From Clostridia bacterium (lineage in GTDB: Bacteria > Bacillota > Clostridia > Oscillospirales > Acutalibacteraceae), in contig JAFQCT010000020.1 in the NCBI GenBank assembly GCA_017399405.1, positions 22,492 through 86,491 of the forward strand: DNA of 64,000 nt, written 5' to 3'. Shown in pieces: positions 3,437-64,000 of this stretch. The translations under genes and the position numbers were made by a program. Position 1 is the first letter of the stretch; every line of letters begins with the position of its first letter. Below the pieces are notes generated by a model that was given only the letters and a program-made list of their open reading frames with translations, had not been told where the DNA came from and ran no database searches.

Positions 3437-5206
3437 ATGAGTCATCAAAGCCGATTTCCAATAAATGAACCATTTTACGAGGTTCGCCAGATTAAAGATT
3501 TTAAGGATTTAATCGACCAGAGTGAAAAACTTTTTTCAGAGCGTCCTGCATATAAACTTAAGAATAAAGACGGTGTTTATTATGAGGTAACTTATAAGAA
3601 TTTCCGTCACGCTATCTATTATCTTGCAAATAGTCTTATTACAGATGGTTATTCAAGACAACATATTGCAGTTGTTGGTGCAAACTCATATAAATGGGCA
3701 GTAACATACCTTGCTGTTACTTGTAGTAATAATGTTATTGTGCCCGTTGATAAAGAGCTTACAATTGATAATATTATTGATGTTCTTAAAGACTCAGACT
3801 CAACAATGATTTTTGGCGATAAGAAATATATCAAAGCCTTGGTTGAAAGAAAAGATGAACTTCCTGAAGGCTTTAAGTTCGTATGTTTTGATGAAGTGGA
3901 AATCGACGGTGCAACTGATTACGAAGAATATGTTGATATTGGTCGCAAACTTTATAGAAGTGGCAAAAAACTTCTTAATGATATTATAATCGACCCTGAC
4001 GCTATGACAGCACTACTTTTTACATCAGGTACAACAGGTGTTTCAAAAGGTGTTTGTTTAAGTCAAAAGAATATCTGTGCAGTTGTTCTTGGTGCGGCAG
4101 GTTGCATTAAGGTTACTGAAGAAGACCAACTTCTTTCAATATTGCCAATCCACCACACTTACGAATGCACAATCGGTTTCCTTTACATTATTTATTGTGG
4201 TGCTTGTATTGCATTTTGTGACGGTCTTCGTTATATTACAAAGAATTTTAAGGAAGTAAAGCCTACTGCATTTATTACTGTTCCGCTTCTTATTGAAAAA
4301 GTTCACGGAAAAATTATGAAGAAGATGGAAGAAAAAACTGCAGGTAAACTTATCTTCAAAGTTGGTAAATACGCCTCAATTTTCAGTAAAGCAATTGGCA
4401 TTAAAGACCTTGACCGTAAACTTTTTGCAGAAGTTATTGAAACATTTGGCGGCAGACTCCGTCTTATTGTAACTGGTGCTGCAGCCCTTGACCCTCGTGT
4501 TGCAGAAGATATTATGCATATGGGTATTGACCTTTATATCGGTTATGGCCTTACAGAATGTGCACCACTTGTTATGTGTAATAATGACCGTCTTATGCTT
4601 CCTGACTCAATTGGTACACCAATCCCAAGTGTTGAGGCATTTATTCACGACCCTGACGATTTAGGTGTTGGCGAAATCTGGGTGCGTGGTCCAATGGTTA
4701 TGAAAGGCTATTACAAAAATCCTGAAGCAACTGCACAAGTTATTACAGAAGATGGTTGGTTTAGAACAGGTGACCTTGGTACATGCGACCGTCATAACTG
4801 TTATAAAATTACAGGCAGAAGTAAAAATGTTATCGTTACAAAAAACGGTAAAAATATCTTCCCTGAAGAAGTTGAGCATTATCTCAATACAAATCCCGTT
4901 ATTGAAGAAAGTCTTGTTTTTGGTGATGATATTGATGATGAAACTTATGTAAGTGCATCAATTTACCCTAACTATGAGCAGATTAAGAATAACTTAAAGC
5001 GTCAGGATATTACAAAAGAAGATGTTCAAAAATCTGTTGAAGAAGCAGTTAAGGATGTAAACAAAAAACTTCCCAAATACAAGAAAATCAGAAATATTGA
5101 AATCCGTGACGAAGAGTTTGAAAAGACTACAACAAAGAAAATCAAGCGTCACGCAAATATGAAGAAAAAGAATAATACAGAAACAGAAGAAAAAACAGAG
5201 GAATAA
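3437..5206 (+). CDS. AMP-dependent synthetase/ligase (long-chain fatty acid-CoA ligase-like)
   Basis: Adenylate-forming enzyme core motifs are present: LFTSGTTGVSKGV, GYGLTE, FRTGDLG and GRSKNVIVTKNGKNI. Confidence 0.85.
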   Translation: MSHQSRFPINEPFYEVRQIKDFKDLIDQSEKLFSERPAYKLKNKDGVYYEVTYKNFRHAIYYLANSLITDGYSRQHIAVVGANSYKWAVTYLAVTCSNNVIVPVDKELTIDNIIDVLKDSDSTMIFGDKKYIKALVERKDELPEGFKFVCFDEVEIDGATDYEEYVDIGRKLYRSGKKLLNDIIIDPDAMTALLFTSGTTGVSKGVCLSQKNICAVVLGAAGCIKVTEEDQLLSILPIHHTYECTIGFLYIIYCGACIAFCDGLRYITKNFKEVKPTAFITVPLLIEKVHGKIMKKMEEKTAGKLIFKVGKYASIFSKAIGIKDLDRKLFAEVIETFGGRLRLIVTGAAALDPRVAEDIMHMGIDLYIGYGLTECAPLVMCNNDRLMLPDSIGTPIPSVEAFIHDPDDLGVGEIWVRGPMVMKGYYKNPEATAQVITEDGWFRTGDLGTCDRHNCYKITGRSKNVIVTKNGKNIFPEEVEHYLNTNPVIEESLVFGDDIDDETYVSASIYPNYEQIKNNLKRQDITKEDVQKSVEEAVKDVNKKLPKYKKIRNIEIRDEEFEKTTTKKIKRHANMKKKNNTETEEKTEE

Positions 5207-5210
5207 TACA

Positions 5211-5801
5211 ATGATTTTAGGTTACGGTAATACCGAAGAATTTTCTAACGGTACAAAAGTGTTAGCCCTTATGGCGTCGCCAAGAAAAACCGGATATACA
5301 GCAAAACTTTTGGGAACACTTCTTCGTGAATTTCCAAAAGGTACAAATATTGAAATTGTAAATCTTTATGAGTTAAATCCAACCCCTTGTAACGCTTGCG
5401 GTTACTGTAAAGCAGGTAACGGATGCTCTAAAAAAGATTTAGAAGATTTCTTCAAAAAGTTTGAAACAGCTGATGTAATTGTGTTTGCAACGCCAATATA
5501 TTTTATGGGTGTTCCTGCTCCCTTCAAAGCACTTATTGACCGTTTTCAGCGTTATTACGAGGCTCGTTTTCGTCGTAATATGAAACACCCAATTGAAAAG
5601 CCACGCAAAGCAGTACTTATTGTTACAAGTGGTAGCGATGGTGAAGTTGGTTTTGAAGTTATTAAACATCAGCTTTTACAAGCGTTCACAGTACTTAACA
5701 TTGAACTTAAAGGCTCAATGCTTGCTCGTAATACAGATAAATGCGGTGTTGACAAAACAGATGTTGACAGAGCCGCAGCATTATATAGGAGTGTTAGATA
5801 A
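5211..5801 (+). CDS. Iron-sulfur flavoprotein / NADPH-dependent FMN reductase family
   Basis: The N-terminus is flavodoxin-like (KVLALMASPRK.GYT). It carries the compact Cys motif CNACGYCKAGNGC (CX2CX2CX5C) typical of the Isf family. Confidence 0.7.
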   Translation: MILGYGNTEEFSNGTKVLALMASPRKTGYTAKLLGTLLREFPKGTNIEIVNLYELNPTPCNACGYCKAGNGCSKKDLEDFFKKFETADVIVFATPIYFMGVPAPFKALIDRFQRYYEARFRRNMKHPIEKPRKAVLIVTSGSDGEVGFEVIKHQLLQAFTVLNIELKGSMLARNTDKCGVDKTDVDRAAALYRSVR

Positions 5802-16888: not shown

Positions 16889-18279
16889 AAACAACTGAAA
16901 AAATCACAGCAAAAGAAAATCGTGAGATTTCAAGACTTAAAAAAATGCAAAACCGCAATAGCAGTAGCAAATATTTTTTAATCTTGTTAATGCTTATTGC
17001 AATCGTCAACATTCTGGACGAAGTTACAAGCAACTTGACCGTTACGGTGCAATCTTCATTTGTTACAGAGTTTTTTGTAAACAACCCGTTTATGGGTAAG
17101 TTTTATACTTATGAAGACGGACTTGCACTTCATTCAAGCGTTGGTGTATTTACCTATGTTTTAGGACTTTTCACACCATTCTATAAAGCCCTTGCAGATA
17201 AGTGGGGACGCAAACCGCTTTTTGCAATTTCAACACTTGGTATGGCAATAGGACTTTTAGTAATTCACTTGTCGTCAAGTTACATAATGTTCCTTGTGGG
17301 CTTTGCAATTATCAGTTTCTTTATGGGGCACGATATCCAGATTATTTATGTGCTTGAAGAAGCACCCGACCGTCACCGTGCAAAGATTTACAGTTTTCTT
17401 AAAAGTTTTGGTATTTTAGGTGTTATTTTAATCCCTGCACTTCGCGATGCTTTAATGGGTGATGACGCTACAAAATGGCGAGATATTTTCTTAGTACCGT
17501 CTTTAATCGGCTTTGTTGCAGTGGCATTAGTACTTCTTCTTGCAAAAGATACAAAAGTGTTTATAAACGAAAGAATTGCATATCTTTCTCGTCCTTATGA
17601 AGAACGCGAAAAAGAAAAAGCACTTAAAAAGCAACAAAAAGAAGCACAACGAAATCAGTCAGGTGTGTTTAACGGTGTTAAGTATATCTTCGCAAATAAA
17701 GATACAAAAATGCTTATTATCTCACATATTATTTTTGATACCGCAATGCCTGCAATCGCACTTTATTTTGAATCTTCAATGCACCGTGCAGGAATGAGCA
17801 CAAGTGAAATTACAAAAGCACTTTTTATGGTACCTGTAATTTACGCCACAATCACATTCCTTTCAGGCTTTATTGCAGATAAGTTTGGCAGAAAAGCAAC
17901 TGTTACAGGATTTTCAATTACTTGCGTTGTAGGATATATTCTTTTCGTAGTTGGTATTCTTAACGGTTGGGAACCATATTTAATTGGCTCTTTTGCAGGA
18001 CTTTACCAAGGTTCATATTGGATTGGTCGCGATTATATGAATGTTATGATGACCGAAAAAGTGCCGACAGATATTCGGGCATCAGTTGTTGGTGCTGAAG
18101 GACTTTTAGTAATTATCGGCCTTGTAGTTGGTTATGCACTTGCAATTGTGGGAATGCTCTTTATGGATATTTGGTGGGCTTGTCTTGCTATTGCAATTCC
18201 AACAGTATCAATCGCAGCAATAATGTTTACCCTTAAAGTCAAAGAAACAAAAGGTGCAAATTTAGATGAAATAAAATAA
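16885..18279 (+). CDS. MFS transporter
   Basis: 12-TM architecture with a central charged loop and the motif ADKWGRKP. The start overlaps the GH127 stop (ATGA). Confidence 0.75.
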   Translation: MKTTEKITAKENREISRLKKMQNRNSSSKYFLILLMLIAIVNILDEVTSNLTVTVQSSFVTEFFVNNPFMGKFYTYEDGLALHSSVGVFTYVLGLFTPFYKALADKWGRKPLFAISTLGMAIGLLVIHLSSSYIMFLVGFAIISFFMGHDIQIIYVLEEAPDRHRAKIYSFLKSFGILGVILIPALRDALMGDDATKWRDIFLVPSLIGFVAVALVLLLAKDTKVFINERIAYLSRPYEEREKEKALKKQQKEAQRNQSGVFNGVKYIFANKDTKMLIISHIIFDTAMPAIALYFESSMHRAGMSTSEITKALFMVPVIYATITFLSGFIADKFGRKATVTGFSITCVVGYILFVVGILNGWEPYLIGSFAGLYQGSYWIGRDYMNVMMTEKVPTDIRASVVGAEGLLVIIGLVVGYALAIVGMLFMDIWWACLAIAIPTVSIAAIMFTLKVKETKGANLDEIK

Positions 18280-59775: not shown

Positions 59776-59964
59776 AAATTGAGTTTGTCAACTCATCCAA
59801 TCGTAAATTGGATTTCATCATCCGTAGGATGATTTCATTTATAAACACAGTTATTAAATGAAATCTGTCTTCGACAGATGAAATCACTTCGTGATGAAAT
59901 CCTCGTTTTACTCGGATGAAATCTGCCTTTGGCAGATGATTAACATCCCGATAACCTCTAATTT
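59776..59964. repeat. Modular repeat, copy F (family TIR-like ends + GATGAAATC hairpin-array cassette)
   Basis: The left end AAATTGAGTTTGTCA and right end AACATCCCGATAACCTCTAATTT are diverged versions of the copy A/C termini. The interior is shared with copy E. Confidence 0.75.
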
Positions 59965-60115: not shown

Positions 60116-60191
<76 letters not shown>

Positions 60192-60193
60192 AT

Positions 60194-60237
60194 ATATAGT
60201 GGTTAATCGTTATATCAAACACAAGATATAGTGGTTA
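60194..60237 (+). repeat. Direct repeats ATATAGTGGTTA x2 next to the tRNA 3' end
   Basis: Copies lie at 60194-60205 and 60226-60237. The second is part of the small hairpin GTGG-TTAG-CCAC. Confidence 0.6.
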
Positions 60238-60257
60238 GCCACTTTTTCTTTGTTTTT

Positions 60258-60283
60258 AGGGTACACTTTTAGGGTACACTTTT
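60258..60283 (+). repeat. Tandem 13-mer AGGGTACACTTTT x2
   Basis: Perfect tandem duplication at 60258-60270 and 60271-60283. Confidence 0.75.
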
Positions 60284-60289
60284 AATTTT

Positions 60290-60313
60290 AGGGGCATTTT
60301 TGCCCCTTTTTTT
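60290..60313 (+). terminator. Rho-independent terminator (probably ends the tRNA transcript)
   Basis: AGGGGCA-TTTT-TGCCCCT followed by T7. Confidence 0.75.
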
Positions 60314-60354
60314 ATTTTTCAAAAAAATTAAAAAATTTTATAAAATATAGTCAT

Positions 60355-60391
60355 TTTTTCCTCGTTTTTTTAAGTCGCCTTACATACTTAA
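60355..60391 (+). repeat. Direct repeat box 1 (core CTTACATACTTAA)
   Basis: TTTTTCCTCGTTTTTTTAAGTCGCCTTACATACTTAA is repeated imperfectly at 60901-60938. The 13-nt core is identical in both. Confidence 0.7.
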
Positions 60392-60394
60392 TAT

Positions 60395-60898
60395 GAAAAC
60401 AAAATAAAACGGCTATAGTGTATTCGCTCACTATCTTGAGTTCAATAATAAAAAGCGTTGCGGTTAGAGTCCGACCGCCGAGGAGTTCGCTCGTATAAAG
60501 TGGAGTTAGTAAGGCTCATAACGATAATTAAACTTACCCGCTATATCTATTGTGTGCGGTTCTCAATATAGGTTATATTTTTGTCTGTTTTTTCTATTGC
60601 TAAACACTATAAAAGTTAAGAGATACCTTTTCAAGTGGGGGCTATAAGGCAATTACACTAATAACTAGTATAAAAATATTAACGCTTTCTAGTAGCGTAT
60701 AAAAGTTAGTGAAAAACAGAAGAGGGGCAACCCGTGAAGGAATATATATAAAACCCTGTGGAGCGGGACAAGGGTAATCTTAATAAAGTTGTATATTCTC
60801 GGACTTCATAAGGCGAACTATATCTTTTTGAAGATAACAAACGCAGTTAATTAGATTAGTTGATATAGTTCGTAAAAAATAATTTATTAAAATTGTTA
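60395..60898 (+). other. ORF-poor, hairpin-rich region: candidate phage origin/packaging region or large structured ncRNA
   Basis: No ORF of 60 aa or more on either strand. Several stems are visible: GCGGT-N9-ACCGC at 60460-60478, ACGCT-N7-AGCGT at 60682-60698, ACCCT-N13-AGGGT at 60753-60775, and the 11-bp CGAACTATATC (60814-60824) / GATATAGTTCG (60862-60872). The region is bracketed by the two repeat boxes. Confidence 0.35.
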
Positions 60899-60900
60899 AA

Positions 60901-60938
60901 GTTTTCTCCGTTTTTAAGTTATGTCTTACATACTTAAA
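60901..60938 (+). repeat. Direct repeat box 2 (core CTTACATACTTAA)
   Basis: GTTTTCTCCGTTTTTAAGTTATGTCTTACATACTTAAA. See box 1. Confidence 0.7.
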
Positions 60939-60986
60939 TTAAATAAATTAAGTTTATTAAATTAAATTAGAAAGGTTGTTAAAGTT

Positions 60987-61217
60987 ATGAATTTAATTGT
61001 TAAAGGTATTTACCTTAATAGAGTTAAGGGAACTAGTAAGAATGGCAATCCGTTCTATAACTGTTCTGTTTTTAGTGGTAGGGAGATTATTAAAATTTCT
61101 ATAAGTCCTGAACACTATGAAAAACTCGCACAGGTTAAAGAAGGTCAGTTTGTAGATATTGAGTGTTATACTCGTTGGTCTGCGGATAAAAAGTATTTGA
61201 ATTTCTATAGCAGATAA
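60987..61217 (+). CDS. Small OB-fold-like protein, candidate ssDNA-binding protein (gene V analogue)
   Basis: 76 aa with no TM segment. The segment VKGTSKNGNPFYNCSVF resembles the Ff gene V segment SGVSRQGKPYSL (recalled from memory). It is the first gene of the module. Confidence 0.45.
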   Translation: MNLIVKGIYLNRVKGTSKNGNPFYNCSVFSGREIIKISISPEHYEKLAQVKEGQFVDIECYTRWSADKKYLNFYSR

Positions 61218-61239
61218 TTGCAGAAAGTAGGTGTTTATT

Positions 61240-62106
61240 GTGATTTCTGTTAAATTAAGCAATAAGCACCTATTAACTGCGTTAGTGTCTTTGGTGCTTG
61301 TTTTAAGTCTTAATATAAATGTATTCGCTAGTGATTTGATTAGTTTCTATGATTATGATTTTAATGCCTATTATCAAACTGATAGCGGTTCAGTTAATTG
61401 TACTTCCACAACTGCTAAAAGTCGTCCAAGTTCCACCGCCGATAATGGGCGGTTATATACTCAATATGTTTTTACTTTAGGCGGATTAAATGACCGCGTT
61501 ATTATGACGGGTGCGGATTTGAATTTATACACTAATACGGAATATGAGTTTGATTTTCAGTTTTTTGTTAGTGGTTCTTCTTGTCCTACTGATGTATTAA
61601 TTACTTTGTGGGTATCTTCTCAAAATGACGAAGGAACTATAATAACTATTTACGATGCGGACGGGCTAGAGAGTAAAAAATGGATTAACTGTCAGGGTAC
61701 TTTCAAAACTCCCGATTTTTCGGGTAGTGTTCAATATGCTATGTTAGTTCAGTTAAGAGAAAACGAGAACTCTAACGGAACTACAGGGGCTAGATTTTGT
61801 ATATCTGATATGGCTTGTAATCCCGTTGGTCCGCTTTACGGGGAAGAAATAATGACACCTGATACGGGAGATTTAGACGATAATCTACAAAATTATGACG
61901 ACTTAATAGACTCTTTGCCTACTGTCGATAGCGGACAAATTAATGACTTAATGAATTTTGATTTTGGTTCTTTTGTCGATGGTATGAATTTCGTTCGCGA
62001 TATGTTCGACCGCACTTTAATGGCTTTTAATTTTAACTCTGTTCTTTTGTTCTCGTTGGTGTTTGGTTTGGCTTGTTTAATATTGGGAAGGAAGGCGAGT
62101 AAATAA
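61240..62106 (+). CDS. Secreted, C-terminally anchored protein; candidate adsorption/minor coat protein (g3p-like architecture)
   Basis: GTG at 61240 is preceded by AGGTG. The signal peptide is LLTALVSLVLVLSLNINVFA/SD. The middle is beta-rich, an acidic linker follows, and the C-terminal TM helix is VLLFSLVFGLACLILGRKASK. Confidence 0.55.
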   Translation: MISVKLSNKHLLTALVSLVLVLSLNINVFASDLISFYDYDFNAYYQTDSGSVNCTSTTAKSRPSSTADNGRLYTQYVFTLGGLNDRVIMTGADLNLYTNTEYEFDFQFFVSGSSCPTDVLITLWVSSQNDEGTIITIYDADGLESKKWINCQGTFKTPDFSGSVQYAMLVQLRENENSNGTTGARFCISDMACNPVGPLYGEEIMTPDTGDLDDNLQNYDDLIDSLPTVDSGQINDLMNFDFGSFVDGMNFVRDMFDRTLMAFNFNSVLLFSLVFGLACLILGRKASK

Positions 62107-62342
62107 TGCTTGAAGGCATTTTTGGATTTTTTGAATGGCTTTCTACTCTTTTTCAAATTGTTATAGATTTTATAGTTAATTTAATTGAAAATCTTATAGC
62201 ATTTTTTCAGTTAATTCCTTCCGTGCTTGTTTTTGTAGGTTCTGCGATTTCTTATTTACCTTCTTCTATTATGATTTTTGCAACAGTTGGTATTACAGTT
62301 TCTGTAATGTATTTAATACTTGGGAGGGACGATGGACAATGA
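62106..62342 (+). CDS. Small membrane protein (two hydrophobic helices), g6p-like position
   Basis: 78 aa. The start overlaps the preceding stop (TAATG). The N-terminus is GIFGFFEWLSTLFQIV. Confidence 0.55.
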   Translation: MLEGIFGFFEWLSTLFQIVIDFIVNLIENLIAFFQLIPSVLVFVGSAISYLPSSIMIFATVGITVSVMYLILGRDDGQ

Positions 62343-62572
62343 GTAATATTTTTGATTTGATTTTTAGTTTATTTGAATGGGTCATTTCTTCTCTCCGCTC
62401 AATTCCTTTAAGTGATAATGTTAGTTTATTCGATTTTTCTTTTGCTCTGCTTATTATGGGTATTACTCTCTCTGCGGTTGTAATTACCGCTAAAAGTTCC
62501 GCCCTTAATTCACAAAGTGCTAGATACAGAGAGAACAGGCAAAACGAAAGAAAGCAAAACAAAGGGGGTTAA
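62339..62572 (+). CDS. Small membrane protein with a basic C-terminal tail
   Basis: 77 aa with an ATGA overlap with the previous ORF. The N-terminus IFDLIFSLFEWVISSL is paralogous to the previous ORF. It has one TM helix and then the basic tail RYRENRQNERKQNKGG. Confidence 0.55.
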   Translation: MSNIFDLIFSLFEWVISSLRSIPLSDNVSLFDFSFALLIMGITLSAVVITAKSSALNSQSARYRENRQNERKQNKGG

Positions 62573-62575
62573 TTA

Positions 62576-62740
62576 ATGTATAACTATTATGAATTAGTTG
62601 CAGTATGTGAAACTATCGCAACTAAAATAGATACTGTTATATATTTATTAGAAACGAATTTAACCCCATTGTTATATATTATATCTTTTGCTGTTTTGCT
62701 TAAGATTGGATTTAGTTGTTTAAGGGGGTATCGCGTTTGA
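62576..62740 (+). CDS. Small hypothetical membrane protein (54 aa, below the ORF-track cutoff)
   Basis: ATG at 62576 lies 3 nt after the previous stop. I translated it by hand as MYNYYELVAVCETIATKIDTVIYLLETNLTPLLYIISFAVLLKIGFSCLRGYRV. Confidence 0.4.
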   Translation: MYNYYELVAVCETIATKIDTVIYLLETNLTPLLYIISFAVLLKIGFSCLRGYRV

Positions 62741-62880
62741 TTGATTGGCTTATCTCCGTTATCGGTACTGTTCCCGAACAGTACGAATTTTTAATAATTT
62801 CAACCGCTTGTGTTTTGGTTGTAATTTTAGTTGTTAATGTTATTAATCTATTTTTTAGCCCGTTTAGGACTTTCAAATAG
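62737..62880 (+). CDS. Small hypothetical single-TM protein (47 aa, TTG start)
   Basis: TTG at 62737 overlaps the previous TGA and is preceded by AAGGGGG at an 8-nt spacing. My hand translation is (M)IDWLISVIGTVPEQYEFLIISTACVLVVILVVNVINLFFSPFRTFK. Confidence 0.4.
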   Translation: MIDWLISVIGTVPEQYEFLIISTACVLVVILVVNVINLFFSPFRTFK

Positions 62881-62910
62881 TATTTAATAAAATTTTGTGG
62901 AAAGGAGAAA

Positions 62911-63363
62911 GTGCCTTTTATGGATGGTACAGTAGTGGCTACAGGTATGACAGGATTAACAGAAGTTGTGACTTGGCTCACAGGTCAATTCGGCGGTGTC
63001 ATCGACACTATCGTAGCAGAACCTATTCTATTGTTAAGCGTTGGCATCTTCGCTTGTGGTAGTGTTATCGGTATGTGGCAATGCCGATATAAAATCGGGG
63101 AATTAAGCGAGAAGGCTCTAAAAATGCTAACTCGAACCGAAGGCTTGACTAACAATCAAGTCAGGGGCAACGCGTAGGGAATGAAACTATTTTATAGAAT
63201 ATAATTTCCCCAAGAGTCTCCGACAATTCAAAGTGAATTGAAAAAGTACGCTAAACTAGGTTGGAATTGACCAACCGATGAAAATGGGCGAAAGTCCTAG
63301 AGTACAAGATAAAAAACTTGTAGTTAATAACAAATGCTTGCTCACAGACTTATTCGTGGTTAA
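62911..63363 (+). CDS. Coat-like small membrane protein A, apparently split: exon 1 62911 (or ATG 62920)..63072, exon 2 63337..63363
   Basis: The joined product ends ...AEPILLLSVGIFACGSVIG-LAHRLIRG*. This parallels paralogue B, ...GQPILLLVLGIFALGSIIGLVRRLMK*. The unspliced read-through (to 63177) has no such basic tail. Confidence 0.5.
63073..63336 (+). ncRNA. Candidate ORF-less group I self-splicing intron (264 nt)
   Basis: P1 is TATCGGT (63066-63072) paired with GCCGATA (63083-63089), with the splice-site U.G pair. P10 is GGCAA (63077-63081) paired with TTGCT (63338-63342). The 3'-terminal base is G at 63336. Interleaved pairings GGGGAA/TTCCCC and AACTAT/GTAGTT resemble P3/P7. A GAAA-tetraloop hairpin lies at 63286-63297. 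Confidence 0.5.
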
Positions 63364-63390
63364 TTTTTAACTAAGGCATAGTAAAATATT

Positions 63391-63651
63391 ATGTCTGCTT
63401 TAACTACGATTTTTAATTTTTTATATGTTTATCTTCGTTGTTTTGCTTGTTATATTTTCGGCGGTCGGTTAGATGTTAATTACTTTTCTAATCTCGAACA
63501 GATAGAATTTGTGCGAAATATTATAAAAACTGCTTCAGGTGGTATTTATGAAAATGGTTTATCTTTTCCGGGTCAGCCTATATTATTACTTGTTTTAGGT
63601 ATATTTGCTTTAGGCTCTATTATTGGTCTTGTTCGCAGATTAATGAAATAA
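63391..63651 (+). CDS. Coat-like small membrane protein B (uninterrupted paralogue)
   Basis: 86 aa with a hydrophobic N-terminal leader, then ...GQPILLLVLGIFALGSIIG followed by the basic tail LVRRLMK. A TM helix plus a basic C-terminus is the filamentous-phage major-coat pattern. Confidence 0.55.
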   Translation: MSALTTIFNFLYVYLRCFACYIFGGRLDVNYFSNLEQIEFVRNIIKTASGGIYENGLSFPGQPILLLVLGIFALGSIIGLVRRLMK

Positions 63652-63755
63652 ATATATAAAAGATTAAAAACTATTTAACTTGTACGCATAAGAAAGAACA
63701 CAAAAAAACTTGCGTTTTTTCCTATGCGTATAACTTTATAAGGTGGTTTTTAATT

Positions 63756-63881
63756 ATGGATTTTATATTAAATGTATTTCAAAATATACCCGATATGCCT
63801 TTAATTGAGTATATCGGCGGTGCTTTTGCTTTTGCTTTCTTATTCTTTTTATTTTACAAACTAACGGGGGTGCTAAAATGA
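63756..63881 (+). CDS. Small single-TM protein (41 aa)
   Basis: ATG at 63756 is preceded by AAGGTGG. My hand translation is MDFILNVFQNIPDMPLIEYIGGAFAFAFLFFLFYKLTGVLK. Its stop overlaps the next start (ATGA). Confidence 0.45.
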   Translation: MDFILNVFQNIPDMPLIEYIGGAFAFAFLFFLFYKLTGVLK

Positions 63882-64000
63882 TAACGGGTTATTTTGGCGT
63901 TCCGGGGTGCGGTAAAACCACACTAGCAACAATGAAAGCGAGAAAGTTAAATAAACAGATTAAAAGAGATATTAAACGCGTTGCAAAGGGTAAAAAAAAG
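63878..64000 (+). CDS. P-loop NTPase, 3'-truncated by the window; candidate Zot/pI-like assembly ATPase
   Basis: The N-terminus MITGYFGVPGCGKTTLA places Walker A right at the N-terminus, as in Ff gene I (VYFVTGKLGSGKT, recalled from memory). Only 41 codons are visible. Confidence 0.45.
   Translation, partial: MITGYFGVPGCGKTTLATMKARKLNKQIKRDIKRVAKGKKK

Follow-up and report, generated by a model that had tools for sequence, protein, structure and literature searches.

A group I intron in a coat gene of a probable inovirus-like prophage that has no replication gene of its own

The locus at the initiator tRNA gene

In this study we describe a group I intron in a coat gene of a probable inovirus-like prophage, which we call element A. 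The element lies at the right end of a 64,000-nt stretch of DNA (the window) from a gut Clostridia bacterium of the Acutalibacteraceae (GenBank assembly GCA_017399405.1, contig JAFQCT010000020.1, positions 22,492 to 86,491 of the forward strand), where an initiator tRNA gene is followed by a non-coding region and by ten small genes, the last of them cut by the window's end. A first-pass annotation, made from the letters alone, had proposed a filamentous-phage-like gene module at this place and advised extending the contig. Such an extension is given by contig L001 (ENA ERZ28019142, 155.9 kb, from a metagenome), one of the 12-15 public contigs on which the 76-aa and 86-aa proteins of the module were found. 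It is 100% identical to the window across 13,014 nt, continues 7.2 kb beyond it and supplies the full ATPase gene, a tyrosine integrase gene and a second copy of the attachment (att) site. Positions below are those of the window unless L001 is named; a position on L001 becomes a window position by adding 50986.

The tRNA gene (60116-60191, + strand) was called as tRNA-Met(CAT) by ARAGORN and matches the Rfam tRNA family with 62 bits. Read by eye it has the hallmarks of an initiator, namely a C1xA72 mismatch and GGG/CCC in the anticodon stem (three G-C pairs), in keeping with the tRNA-fMet named in the first-pass annotation. This gene is the integration target. Its 3' part, 45 nt from the anticodon loop to CCA (attL, 60147-60191, + strand), was found by repeat search in three copies that are 93-100% identical and spaced by 5807 and 3565 nt: one in the tRNA gene, one closing A on the right (L001 14968-15012, or 65954-65998 in window numbering) and one at the right end of a further element, B. 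Since the end of the tRNA gene is present three times, two elements have been integrated here in tandem. Element A measures 5.8 kb and is bounded by the 45-bp direct repeats in tRNA-fMet and beside its integrase gene, which agrees with what Roux et al. (2019, PMC6813254) expect of an integrated inovirus, namely direct repeats of at least 10 bp that lie in a tRNA gene or adjoin an integrase gene; the window from 60147 onward holds its left 3.85 kb. The host-type (60147-60191) and element-type (L001 14968-15012) copies differ at three positions, two of which are the paired T-stem positions 52 and 62 (A-T versus G-C), so that the element-borne copy seems to derive from a real tRNA variant. The integrase of A (414 aa, L001 13591-14835) is encoded after the ATPase gene on the strand opposite to the operon, and its matches to PF00589 (68 bits) and PHROG 1 (2.7e-45) identify it as a tyrosine recombinase. 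A tandem pair of TTTTAGGGTACAC (60254-60279, + strand), likewise found by repeat search and a candidate arm-type site of the integrase, is present again at the opposite end of A, immediately upstream of the integrase gene (L001 14837-14877). Thus the integrase and the right att copy lie beyond the window, as had been expected, whereas Rep, the replication protein that had been placed there as well, is absent from the element altogether. The DNA had also been said to become AT-rich after the tRNA gene. The G+C content does drop, but only modestly (32.8% in the element region versus 36.5% in the rest of the window), and the clearer compositional shift is that the GC skew turns positive.

The ten genes downstream of the non-coding region are all on the + strand. 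Their order and their overlapping stop and start codons, as described in the first-pass annotation, could be confirmed from the sequence; the overlaps are TAATG (p288/p78), ATGA (p78/p77), TTGA (p54/p47) and ATGA (p41/zot). The ratios of non-synonymous to synonymous divergence (dN/dS) given with the genes come from the comparison with a sister element, L009, treated below. The first gene (p76, 60987-61217; dN/dS 0.18) encodes a soluble protein of 76 aa, a candidate single-stranded DNA (ssDNA)-binding protein with an oligonucleotide-binding (OB) fold, and the second (p288, 61240-62106; 0.10) a candidate adsorption protein, both assigned from hydropathy, AlphaFold2 (AF2) models and Foldseek. Four proteins of 47-78 aa follow, for which hydropathy confirms the membrane pattern seen before: the polytopic p78 (62106-62342; 0.06), a minor virion or assembly protein, homologues of which occupy the same position in relatives; p77 (62339-62572; 0.28), with a single transmembrane (TM) segment and a basic C-terminal tail; p54 (62576-62740; 0.48), also with a single TM segment, which is the least certain gene and has no start codon in L009; and p47 (62737-62880; 0.07), of 47 aa with a single TM segment. 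The start of this sixth open reading frame (ORF) had been set at 62716 and is corrected here to the TTG at 62737, which overlaps the p54 stop; L009 has a stop codon upstream of this TTG.

Next come the two coat genes. Coat gene 1 begins with the ATG at 62920 and is interrupted, and coat gene 2 (63391-63651; 0.42) encodes an 86-aa protein whose N-terminus is hydrophobic and which has a TM helix and, as its basic tail, VRRLMK. They are followed by p41 (63756-63881), which is conserved in relatives and has the single TM segment (hydropathy) ascribed to it earlier, its stop codon overlapping the start of zot. The last gene encodes a Zot/pI-family ATPase by its Pfam Zot and PHROG matches; 41 of its 216 codons lie in the window (63878-64000), and it extends to would-be window position 64528 on L001. 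Pfam and PHROG searches with the window ORFs gave nothing significant for nine of the ten, and the 41-residue fragment of the ATPase gave generic P-loop matches only. In Pfam and PHROG scans of the proteins of the window and the extension no capsid, portal, terminase or tail homologues were found, and the earlier statement that such genes are missing thus also holds for the added DNA.

The group I intron in coat gene 1

Exon 1 of coat gene 1 (62920-63072, + strand; 51 codons ending ...GSVIG; dN/dS 0.05) and exon 2 (63337-63363, + strand; LAHRLIRG and the stop codon) are separated by 264 nt without an ORF (63073-63336, + strand), which are identified as a group I intron by intron-less alleles, by homology and by a covariance model. 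When A was compared by blastn with the related loci L013 and L014, the segments L001 11584-12086 and 12351-13539 proved to be adjacent in L013, which leaves 264 extra bases in A. Their removal joins ...GTTATCGGT to CTTGCTCAC... in frame and gives a 59-aa product ending VIG-LAHRLIRG. The same junction exists naturally without an intron, as L013, L014 and P0135 all read ...VIG directly followed by LAHRLIRG; exon 2 is contiguous with exon 1 in L013 and in P0135, a close relative with a 58-aa product reading ...AVIGLAHRLIRG. The boundaries are unambiguous and cannot be shifted by even one base; the intron is preceded by U (T) and ends in G. Without splicing, the frame of coat 1 runs 34 codons into the insert and then stops, and gene callers give an 85-aa hypothetical protein. 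The intron makes up 4.5% of the 5.8-kb genome.

The first-pass annotation had noted a split coat gene. The interruption is real, as the intron-less alleles and the covariation described below show, but it had not been recognised as a group I intron. Spliced coat 1 (59 aa) and coat 2 (86 aa) each have one TM helix and a basic tail by hydropathy, as had been noted for the two coat-like proteins and as is expected of inovirus coats, and the tail LAHRLIRG of coat 1 resembles the basic tail of coat 2. The two are paralogues with ...PILLL..GIFA.GS.IG in common, and L013, L039 and L054 likewise have coat paralogues in tandem. A simple duplication as explanation of the split gene was considered and rejected: the paralogues are conserved in relatives, yet coat 1 is separately interrupted.

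In the fold of the intron, helix P1 pairs the exon sequence UAUCGGU (63066-63072) with GCCGAUA of the intron (intron positions 11-17), so that the last exon U faces G11 as a U.G pair at the 5' splice site; this helix was found by an unconstrained fold. P10 pairs nt 2-6 of the 3' exon (UUGCU) with intron GGCAA (5-9), directly 5' of the P1 guide, and at the other end the intron closes with ...AAAUG, its terminal G being at 63336. The core helices, in intron numbering, are P3 (23-29/145-151), P4 (36-39/59-62), P5 (42-44/54-56), P6 (70-76/84-90), P7 (100-104/175-179), which forms a pseudoknot with P3, and P8 (152-157/163-168), with an extra hairpin at 105-138. The 3' hairpins are P9 (187-204), P9.1 (214-225, with a GAAA loop) and P9.2 (231-250). 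Along the intron the order is P1, P3, P4-P5, P6, P7, extra hairpin, P3', P8, P7' and the three 3' hairpins; there is no P2. The joining segment J4/5 has A-A on both strands.

When we searched 50,697 phage records with the intron by blastn, the matches lay solely in intervening sequences of split genes. They include gyrA of AR9/PBS1 (a three-piece join) and of phiR1-37 (90% of the query at 68% identity), a terminase gene of a C. perfringens phage and the major tail protein gene of a staphylococcal phage, each split around an ORF, a jumbo-phage RNA polymerase gene and, in a crAss-like phage, a site adjoining a 'mobile intron protein'. Compared with phiR1-37 there are compensatory changes in every drawn helix. 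A covariance model was built from two sequences, the intron of A and that of phiR1-37, and P7 was omitted from it because it is pseudoknotted with P3; the model matches 12 tailed-phage introns with 88-296 bits. In the 14-sequence alignment, which was fitted to the model except for P7, 95% of the cells are paired over eleven helices and 46 of the 57 pairs are changed on both sides. None of 500 shuffled controls was as high on any of five measures, and slid registers gave 32-43% pairing. P7, which stands outside the model, is 93% paired; the two pairs at its foot hardly vary, and the third covaries between G-C and A-U.

According to the covariance model, only the window (= L001) and the sister element L009 bear the intron among about 50 inovirus-type loci. 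In L009 it is identical at 263 of 264 positions while the flanking exon differs at a synonymous divergence (dS) of 0.35. A near-identical intron in such diverged elements argues for recent lateral spread or very strong constraint. With a sequence pattern of the family we found at least 120 IMG/VR contigs with such introns; no Zot gene was seen on the 120 intron-bearing contigs within the stretches fetched, and the closest intron among the IMG/VR matches listed is 73% identical. An exact 28-mer of the intron of A is absent from IMG/VR and the JGI metagenomes. Full-text literature searches brought up no account of a group I intron in an inovirus, a filamentous phage or an ssDNA phage.

Relatives, selection and replication genes

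The affiliation of element A is indicated above all by its ATPase. As is expected of a pI-like protein, the full protein of 216 aa is closest to Zot: it reaches the gathering score of Pfam Zot (PF05707), with 20.9 bits against a cut-off of 20.3, and among the PHROGs it matches PHROG 197 (Zot-like toxin, 1.8e-8), PHROG 1675 (M13 protein I, 1e-3) and also the CTXphi Zot-like protein. Hence the search with the Zot profile that the first-pass annotation had suggested is positive, and the N-terminal Walker A motif, which it had compared to Zot/pI in an ORF whose N-terminus reads MITGYFGVPGCGKTT, belongs to a protein of this family. Throughout the family alignment neither Walker A nor the hhhhDE Walker B varies. 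We found 478 homologues, nearly all of 200-230 aa; among the 120 of them listed, most are annotated as PF05707 Zot and lie on 4.5-7 kb contigs. The conservation of p41 and its overlap with zot suggest that in the lineage of A the anchor that holds pI in the membrane comes from a gene of its own, p41 being the likely anchor or partner of an ATPase that itself has no TM segment.

About 50 related loci, inovirus-type genomes or prophages of 4-9 kb, share the gene order of A, and in most of them a rolling-circle Rep comes directly after zot. Gene order was compared for 19 genome loci (from Candidatus Fimenecus, Acutalibacteraceae, other Clostridia metagenome-assembled genomes, two uncultured Bacilli metagenome-assembled genomes and one unclassified bacterium), for ten IMG/VR viral contigs of 4.4-8.1 kb and for five further assemblies. 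It begins with a divergent helix-turn-helix (HTH) repressor, small ORFs, an OB-like 80-aa protein and an anchored protein of about 290 aa, after which come small TM proteins, the pair of coat paralogues, a TM protein of 41 aa, zot and finally Rep. The first-pass annotation had proposed a search with Rep profiles; it yields none in A, while the Reps of the relatives are of RepB/Rep_OBD, G2P or HUH plus superfamily 3 helicase (SF3) type, the last in L039. In L054 a 322-aa protein without Pfam hit (4475-5443) follows zot where other relatives have Rep, and it may represent a further type of replication protein. Close relatives adjoin a conserved host gene for a 329-aa Xer-like recombinase (L014 4794-5783, L054 6490-7479, L057 5861-6850, L058 10851-11840), after which the same host genes follow in all four (DUF3792, YajC, TGT and QueA). 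With this shared neighbour the close relatives probably integrate at a dif-like site, unlike A. Such exchanges are in line with the finding of Roux et al. (2019, PMC6813254) that inoviruses share conserved structural genes and freely exchange replication and integration modules. Judged from the gene maps, A would thus have exchanged its means of integration for another, while the genes for replication and control that these relatives carry were lost.

The two proteins at the start of the operon were modelled. For p76 there is no Pfam or PHROG hit and, with a 10-sequence profile, no sequence match in the PDB, including gene V. Its AF2 model, built from a 3-sequence alignment, has a mean predicted confidence (pLDDT) of 60 and the b1-b3/helix/b4-b5 topology of an OB fold, and the Foldseek top 50 (E >= 0.02) consist mostly of OB folds of cellular SSB, RPA and PriB and do not include gene V. 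This is suggestive only of an ssDNA-binding OB-fold protein that would be a functional analogue of gene V. Of the earlier description, a non-membrane protein with a gene-V-like segment, the soluble character without TM segment is upheld, but the likeness to gene V finds no sequence match and is replaced by a low-confidence fold. In p288, hydropathy and AF2 indicate an N-terminal signal-like helix, an ectodomain, an acidic linker and a C-terminal membrane anchor, which is the general architecture that had been likened to g3p. However, the ectodomain is modelled as a beta-sandwich (residues 30-200, pLDDT 70-90) that in Foldseek resembles the carbohydrate-binding modules (CBMs) CBM22, CBM16 and CBM4 at E 1e-7, with a weak Pfam CBM_4_9 match, and the g3p N1/N2 receptor-binding domains were not matched; p288 is therefore not of the g3p family. 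From this model it is a natural inference that the receptor is a glycan, on a host without pili.

The sister element L009 has an ATPase 98% identical to that of A, the same Rep-less layout and the same integrase. Between the structural genes of the two, dS is 0.35-0.85, and eight of the ten genes have a dN/dS of 0 to 0.28, the exceptions being p54 and the indel-rich coat 2; p41 has nine synonymous and no non-synonymous changes. Purifying selection in eight of ten means that these are genes and not chance ORFs. The integrase and the att arms are 98% identical, so that the elements are mosaics, in which diverged structural modules adjoin an integration module shared recently. The ends of the L009 contig (1-30 and 5859-5887) lie inside the element-type att repeat with a 14-nt overlap, which fits both an excised circle and a place in a tandem array. 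When a 5.8-kb Logan contig, L003, was examined for circularity its ends did not overlap; a break at k=31 within the att repeat accounts for where it stops on the right.

The non-coding region of A (60192-60986, 795 nt, no ORF of 45 aa or more) probably holds the arm sites of the integrase and promoters and possibly an origin or packaging signals. Compared with L009 its first 195 nt are 95% identical and its middle 49-79%; its fold z-score of -1.7 is not remarkable, and it has no meaningful similarity to B or L039. A terminator scan found a G+C-rich hairpin with a T run after the tRNA gene (60290-60307, + strand). The exact 13-mer CTTACATACTTAA occurs at 60379-60391 and 60925-60937 inside a repeat of about 30 nt (CGTTTTT..AAGT..), once in the left part of the region and once 50 nt upstream of the first gene, and the repeat is a possible operator or promoter element. 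On the other side of the tRNA gene, in the hairpin-rich spacer that separates it from an amino-acid permease gene, two adjacent matches to the Rfam family Gut-1 on opposite strands (window 59793-59927; 43 and 31 bits) remain below the cut-off of 50; besides the tRNA, Rfam gave nothing else for this region.

Element B (3.6 kb, L001 15013-18577) lies directly to the right of A and uses the same 45-nt tRNA repeat. It encodes a 381-aa integrase that is 29% identical to that of A, an HTH_17 excisionase-like protein, an HUH plus SF3 Rep (matches to Viral_Rep and RNA_helicase) and an HTH_3 repressor. The Rep is circovirus-like and 50% identical to the intact 335-aa Rep of the inovirus contig L039. 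Upstream of rep a canonical rolling-circle origin hairpin (L001 17545-17590, minus strand) has a perfect 10-bp stem and the loop TTAGTATTAC, which holds TAGTATTAC, the only exact copy in 20 kb; the fold z-score is -4.7. We take TAGTATTAC to be the nonanucleotide of circovirus- and nanovirus-type origins. As assembled, the rep gene is split into pieces of 62 aa and 282 aa by one extra A in the A-run GAAGAAAAAAC (L001 ~17310-17320), so that either rep is a true pseudogene or the assembly is in error here. The 64-kb window contains no further homologue of Rep or integrase. For the replication of A there are three possibilities: complementation by B, a 9.4-kb co-integrate of A and B, or another Rep.

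Interpretation and comparison with known systems

Taken together, we estimate a probability of about 80% that the window from 60147 onward is the left part of an integrated inovirus-like (filamentous, presumably ssDNA) prophage that contains a group I intron and lacks Rep. With the ATPase, the two coat paralogues, the anchored p288, the soluble p76 and five small membrane proteins, its morphogenesis set looks complete. The inovirus-like reading of the first-pass annotation stands on the Zot-family ATPase and on relatives with the same gene order and rolling-circle Reps. It had named a non-Zot ATPase, or tailed-phage, plasmid or integrative and conjugative element (ICE) genes downstream, as findings that would speak for something else; what we found after the zot gene is a tyrosine integrase and an att repeat. 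In such a prophage the operon would be transcribed as a single RNA in which the intron folds: P1 would present the U.G splice site, an external guanosine would attack it and P10 would align the 3' exon, so that self-removal of the intron restores the 59-aa coat protein ending ...VIG-LAHRLIRG. The coat proteins would be inserted in the membrane, and the ATPase, anchored by the 41-aa protein, would drive p76-coated ssDNA out through the single membrane with no need of a secretin. On the next host p288 might bind cell-wall glycan. Replication would be supplied in trans or via a co-integrate, for which B, with its Rep, TAGTATTAC origin, repressor and excisionase-like gene, is the obvious candidate.

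Several observations weigh against this reading. In the gene map and by Pfam no Rep, which an inovirus is expected to have, and no repressor were found between the att sites of A; tblastn found no remnant of either in the non-coding region, and there is no TAGTATTAC-type hairpin in A, matches with one mismatch lying inside genes and being no more frequent than by chance. As the rep of B is frameshifted in the assembly, the only nearby Rep may be dead. The Pfam Zot score is marginal, just above its threshold, and the ATPase has no TM segment (highest 19-residue hydropathy 1.25), whereas Roux et al. (2019, PMC6813254) expect one or two TM domains in a pI-like protein. The assignment of p76 is built on a low-confidence model, coat 2 could make coat 1 dispensable, and virions, ssDNA and splicing are predictions from sequence. 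Finally, the Rfam family Intron_gpI (RF00028) gave no match at E <= 10 on a 331-nt stretch containing the intron. However, RF00028 also misses five homologous introns (AR9, phiR1-37, vB_CpeS-1181, cr6_1 and vB-SscS-F1), and the tailed-phage split-gene loci L044, L045, L046, L049 and L050 have no group I intron according to Rfam release 15 yet score 88-296 bits with the covariance model. Since known homologues are missed, the Rfam test is uninformative for this intron lineage, which appears to be uncovered by the current Rfam family.

Among the other explanations, the one we consider most seriously, although it is tentative, is that A and B are one functional unit, a two-part prophage like CTXphi with RS1, in which B gives Rep, origin, repressor and excisionase and A the virion and assembly genes, and which would either leave the chromosome as one circle of 9.4 kb, by way of the outer att sites, or work by complementation in trans. 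Jointly the two hold the gene set of the single relatives (a repressor divergent from the operon, Rep and the morphogenesis genes), the Rep type of B is used by the related inovirus L039, and HUH Reps with a superfamily 3 helicase (S3H) domain are recorded in inoviruses, where one Rep family has this domain (Roux et al. 2019, PMC6813254). Furthermore, the att copies at the right ends of A and B, which bound B, are identical at 45 of 45 positions, and in seven further places most neighbouring genes encode the same proteins, though this co-occurrence of A and B could be one strain sampled repeatedly. Against a common unit it has to be said that each element has its own integrase, the two being just 29% identical, that B is inverted relative to the layout of L039, that no B-type origin is present in A while the rep of B is frameshifted, and that L009 has att of the element type at either end. 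A bolder version, an ssDNA phage without Rep paired with a Rep/repressor element (a two-part inovirus, or a reversed helper-satellite relation in which the particle-maker depends on a capsid-less partner) and with an intron in the major coat gene whose splicing could gate virion production, is speculative and in our view rather doubtful.

It is similarly doubtful that A is a defective or cryptic remnant, a non-replicating cassette that lost Rep and regulation and is moved by its integrase or just inherited. Such decay might account for the missing Rep and repressor, both present in relatives at 83% ATPase identity, for 800 nt of non-coding DNA where relatives have genes and for the weak conservation of p54. 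But A and L009, separated by a dS of 0.35-0.85, are both Rep-less while nearly all their ORFs are intact (p54 lacks a start in L009) and dN/dS is mostly low; integrase and att sites are intact as well, and this pattern of selection is unlike decay. That the 264-nt insert is a dead intron or inert insertion which inactivates coat 1 and leaves coat 2 as the sole functional coat we regard as unlikely. The insert lacks a homing endonuclease, coat gene 2 is a paralogue lying immediately downstream and the unspliced frame stops 34 codons into the insert; yet all core helices are intact, both invariant pairs at the foot of P7 and the A-A on both strands of J4/5 are present, dN/dS of exon 1 is 0.05 in both intron-bearing alleles and exon 2 is kept in frame with its stop codon. 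Least of all do we expect the module to be non-viral, i.e. an island for membrane proteins or secretion, or part of a plasmid or ICE, with a Zot-like P-loop ATPase. Nine of the ten window ORFs are indeed without family assignment and the Zot score is marginal, but the same gene order recurs on 4.4-8 kb viral contigs and prophages with rolling-circle Reps, the module has coat-type proteins, Pfam and PHROG scans gave no genes for conjugation or partition, and neither relaxase nor type IV secretion genes were seen in the ~50 loci.

If A is an inovirus-like prophage, the phage itself is not new, since its lineage is already present in viral databases. Unusual are the group I intron in the coat gene, which is well supported, and an architecture that is Rep-less but under selection, which is less understood. 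Inoviruses of Gram-positive hosts include Propionibacterium phage B5 and Clostridium phage CAK1. Element A shares with the catalogued inoviruses (Tubulavirales; Roux et al. 2019, PMC6813254) a size of 5-6 kb, co-oriented small genes, the Zot/pI-like signature ATPase, single-TM coats, an anchored adsorption protein, integration at a tRNA gene with direct repeats and an integrase, and swapped modules. It differs from them by the absence of Rep and repressor and by a TM-less ATPase accompanied by a separate 41-aa TM protein that overlaps its start, and furthermore by the group I intron in its coat gene; the word 'intron' does not occur in that paper (PMC6813254). Unlike its close relatives, which sit at the Xer-like gene, A has its own integrase at tRNA-fMet.

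The classic group I introns of tailed phages are those of T4 td and Twort. Closest to the intron of A are others from tailed phages, in gyrA of AR9/PBS1 and of Yersinia phage phiR1-37, the terminase gene of Clostridium phage vB_CpeS-1181 and the tail gene of Staphylococcus phage vB-SscS-F1, with 66-81% nucleotide identity of the core in blocks. They have the same covarying helices, U.G at the 5' splice site, terminal G and P10, lie in conserved protein-coding genes and also carry the extra hairpin between P7 and P3', which we take to be a feature of subgroup IA. In contrast to them, the intron of A resides in an inovirus-type element and has neither a homing endonuclease ORF nor P2. Self-splicing introns are regarded as a feature of large double-stranded DNA phages, and A shows that the smallest and most size-constrained phages can be colonised as well. 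How such introns move is a question raised by an endonuclease-less intron that is identical at 263 of 264 positions between diverged elements. There is also a practical side, as the coat gene is misannotated as an 85-aa hypothetical protein and Rfam misses the whole intron lineage. A group II intron has been reported in an inovirus contig bearing Zot and Rep (IMGVR_UViG_3300011577_000009), where it was flagged as unusual, none having been described in an ssDNA genome (NAR 2025, gkaf761, PMC12350094). That intron carries a reverse transcriptase, whereas the one described here, a group I ribozyme, is small, lacks an ORF and lies in a coat gene.

With regard to its neighbour, element A can be compared to a well-known pair. 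In Vibrio cholerae the filamentous prophage CTXphi lies in tandem with the satellite RS1, a small element with Rep and repressor but without structural genes. Similarly, A is a filamentous-type prophage in tandem with the small Rep and repressor element B. With a Rep-less yet selected inovirus next to a Rep mini-element, one can test directly in gut Clostridia whether integrative ssDNA elements depend on each other. The two systems differ in that CTXphi has its own Rep while A has none, in that tyrosine integrases act at a tRNA gene here and XerCD at dif there, and in that the functional link between A and B is a putative one.

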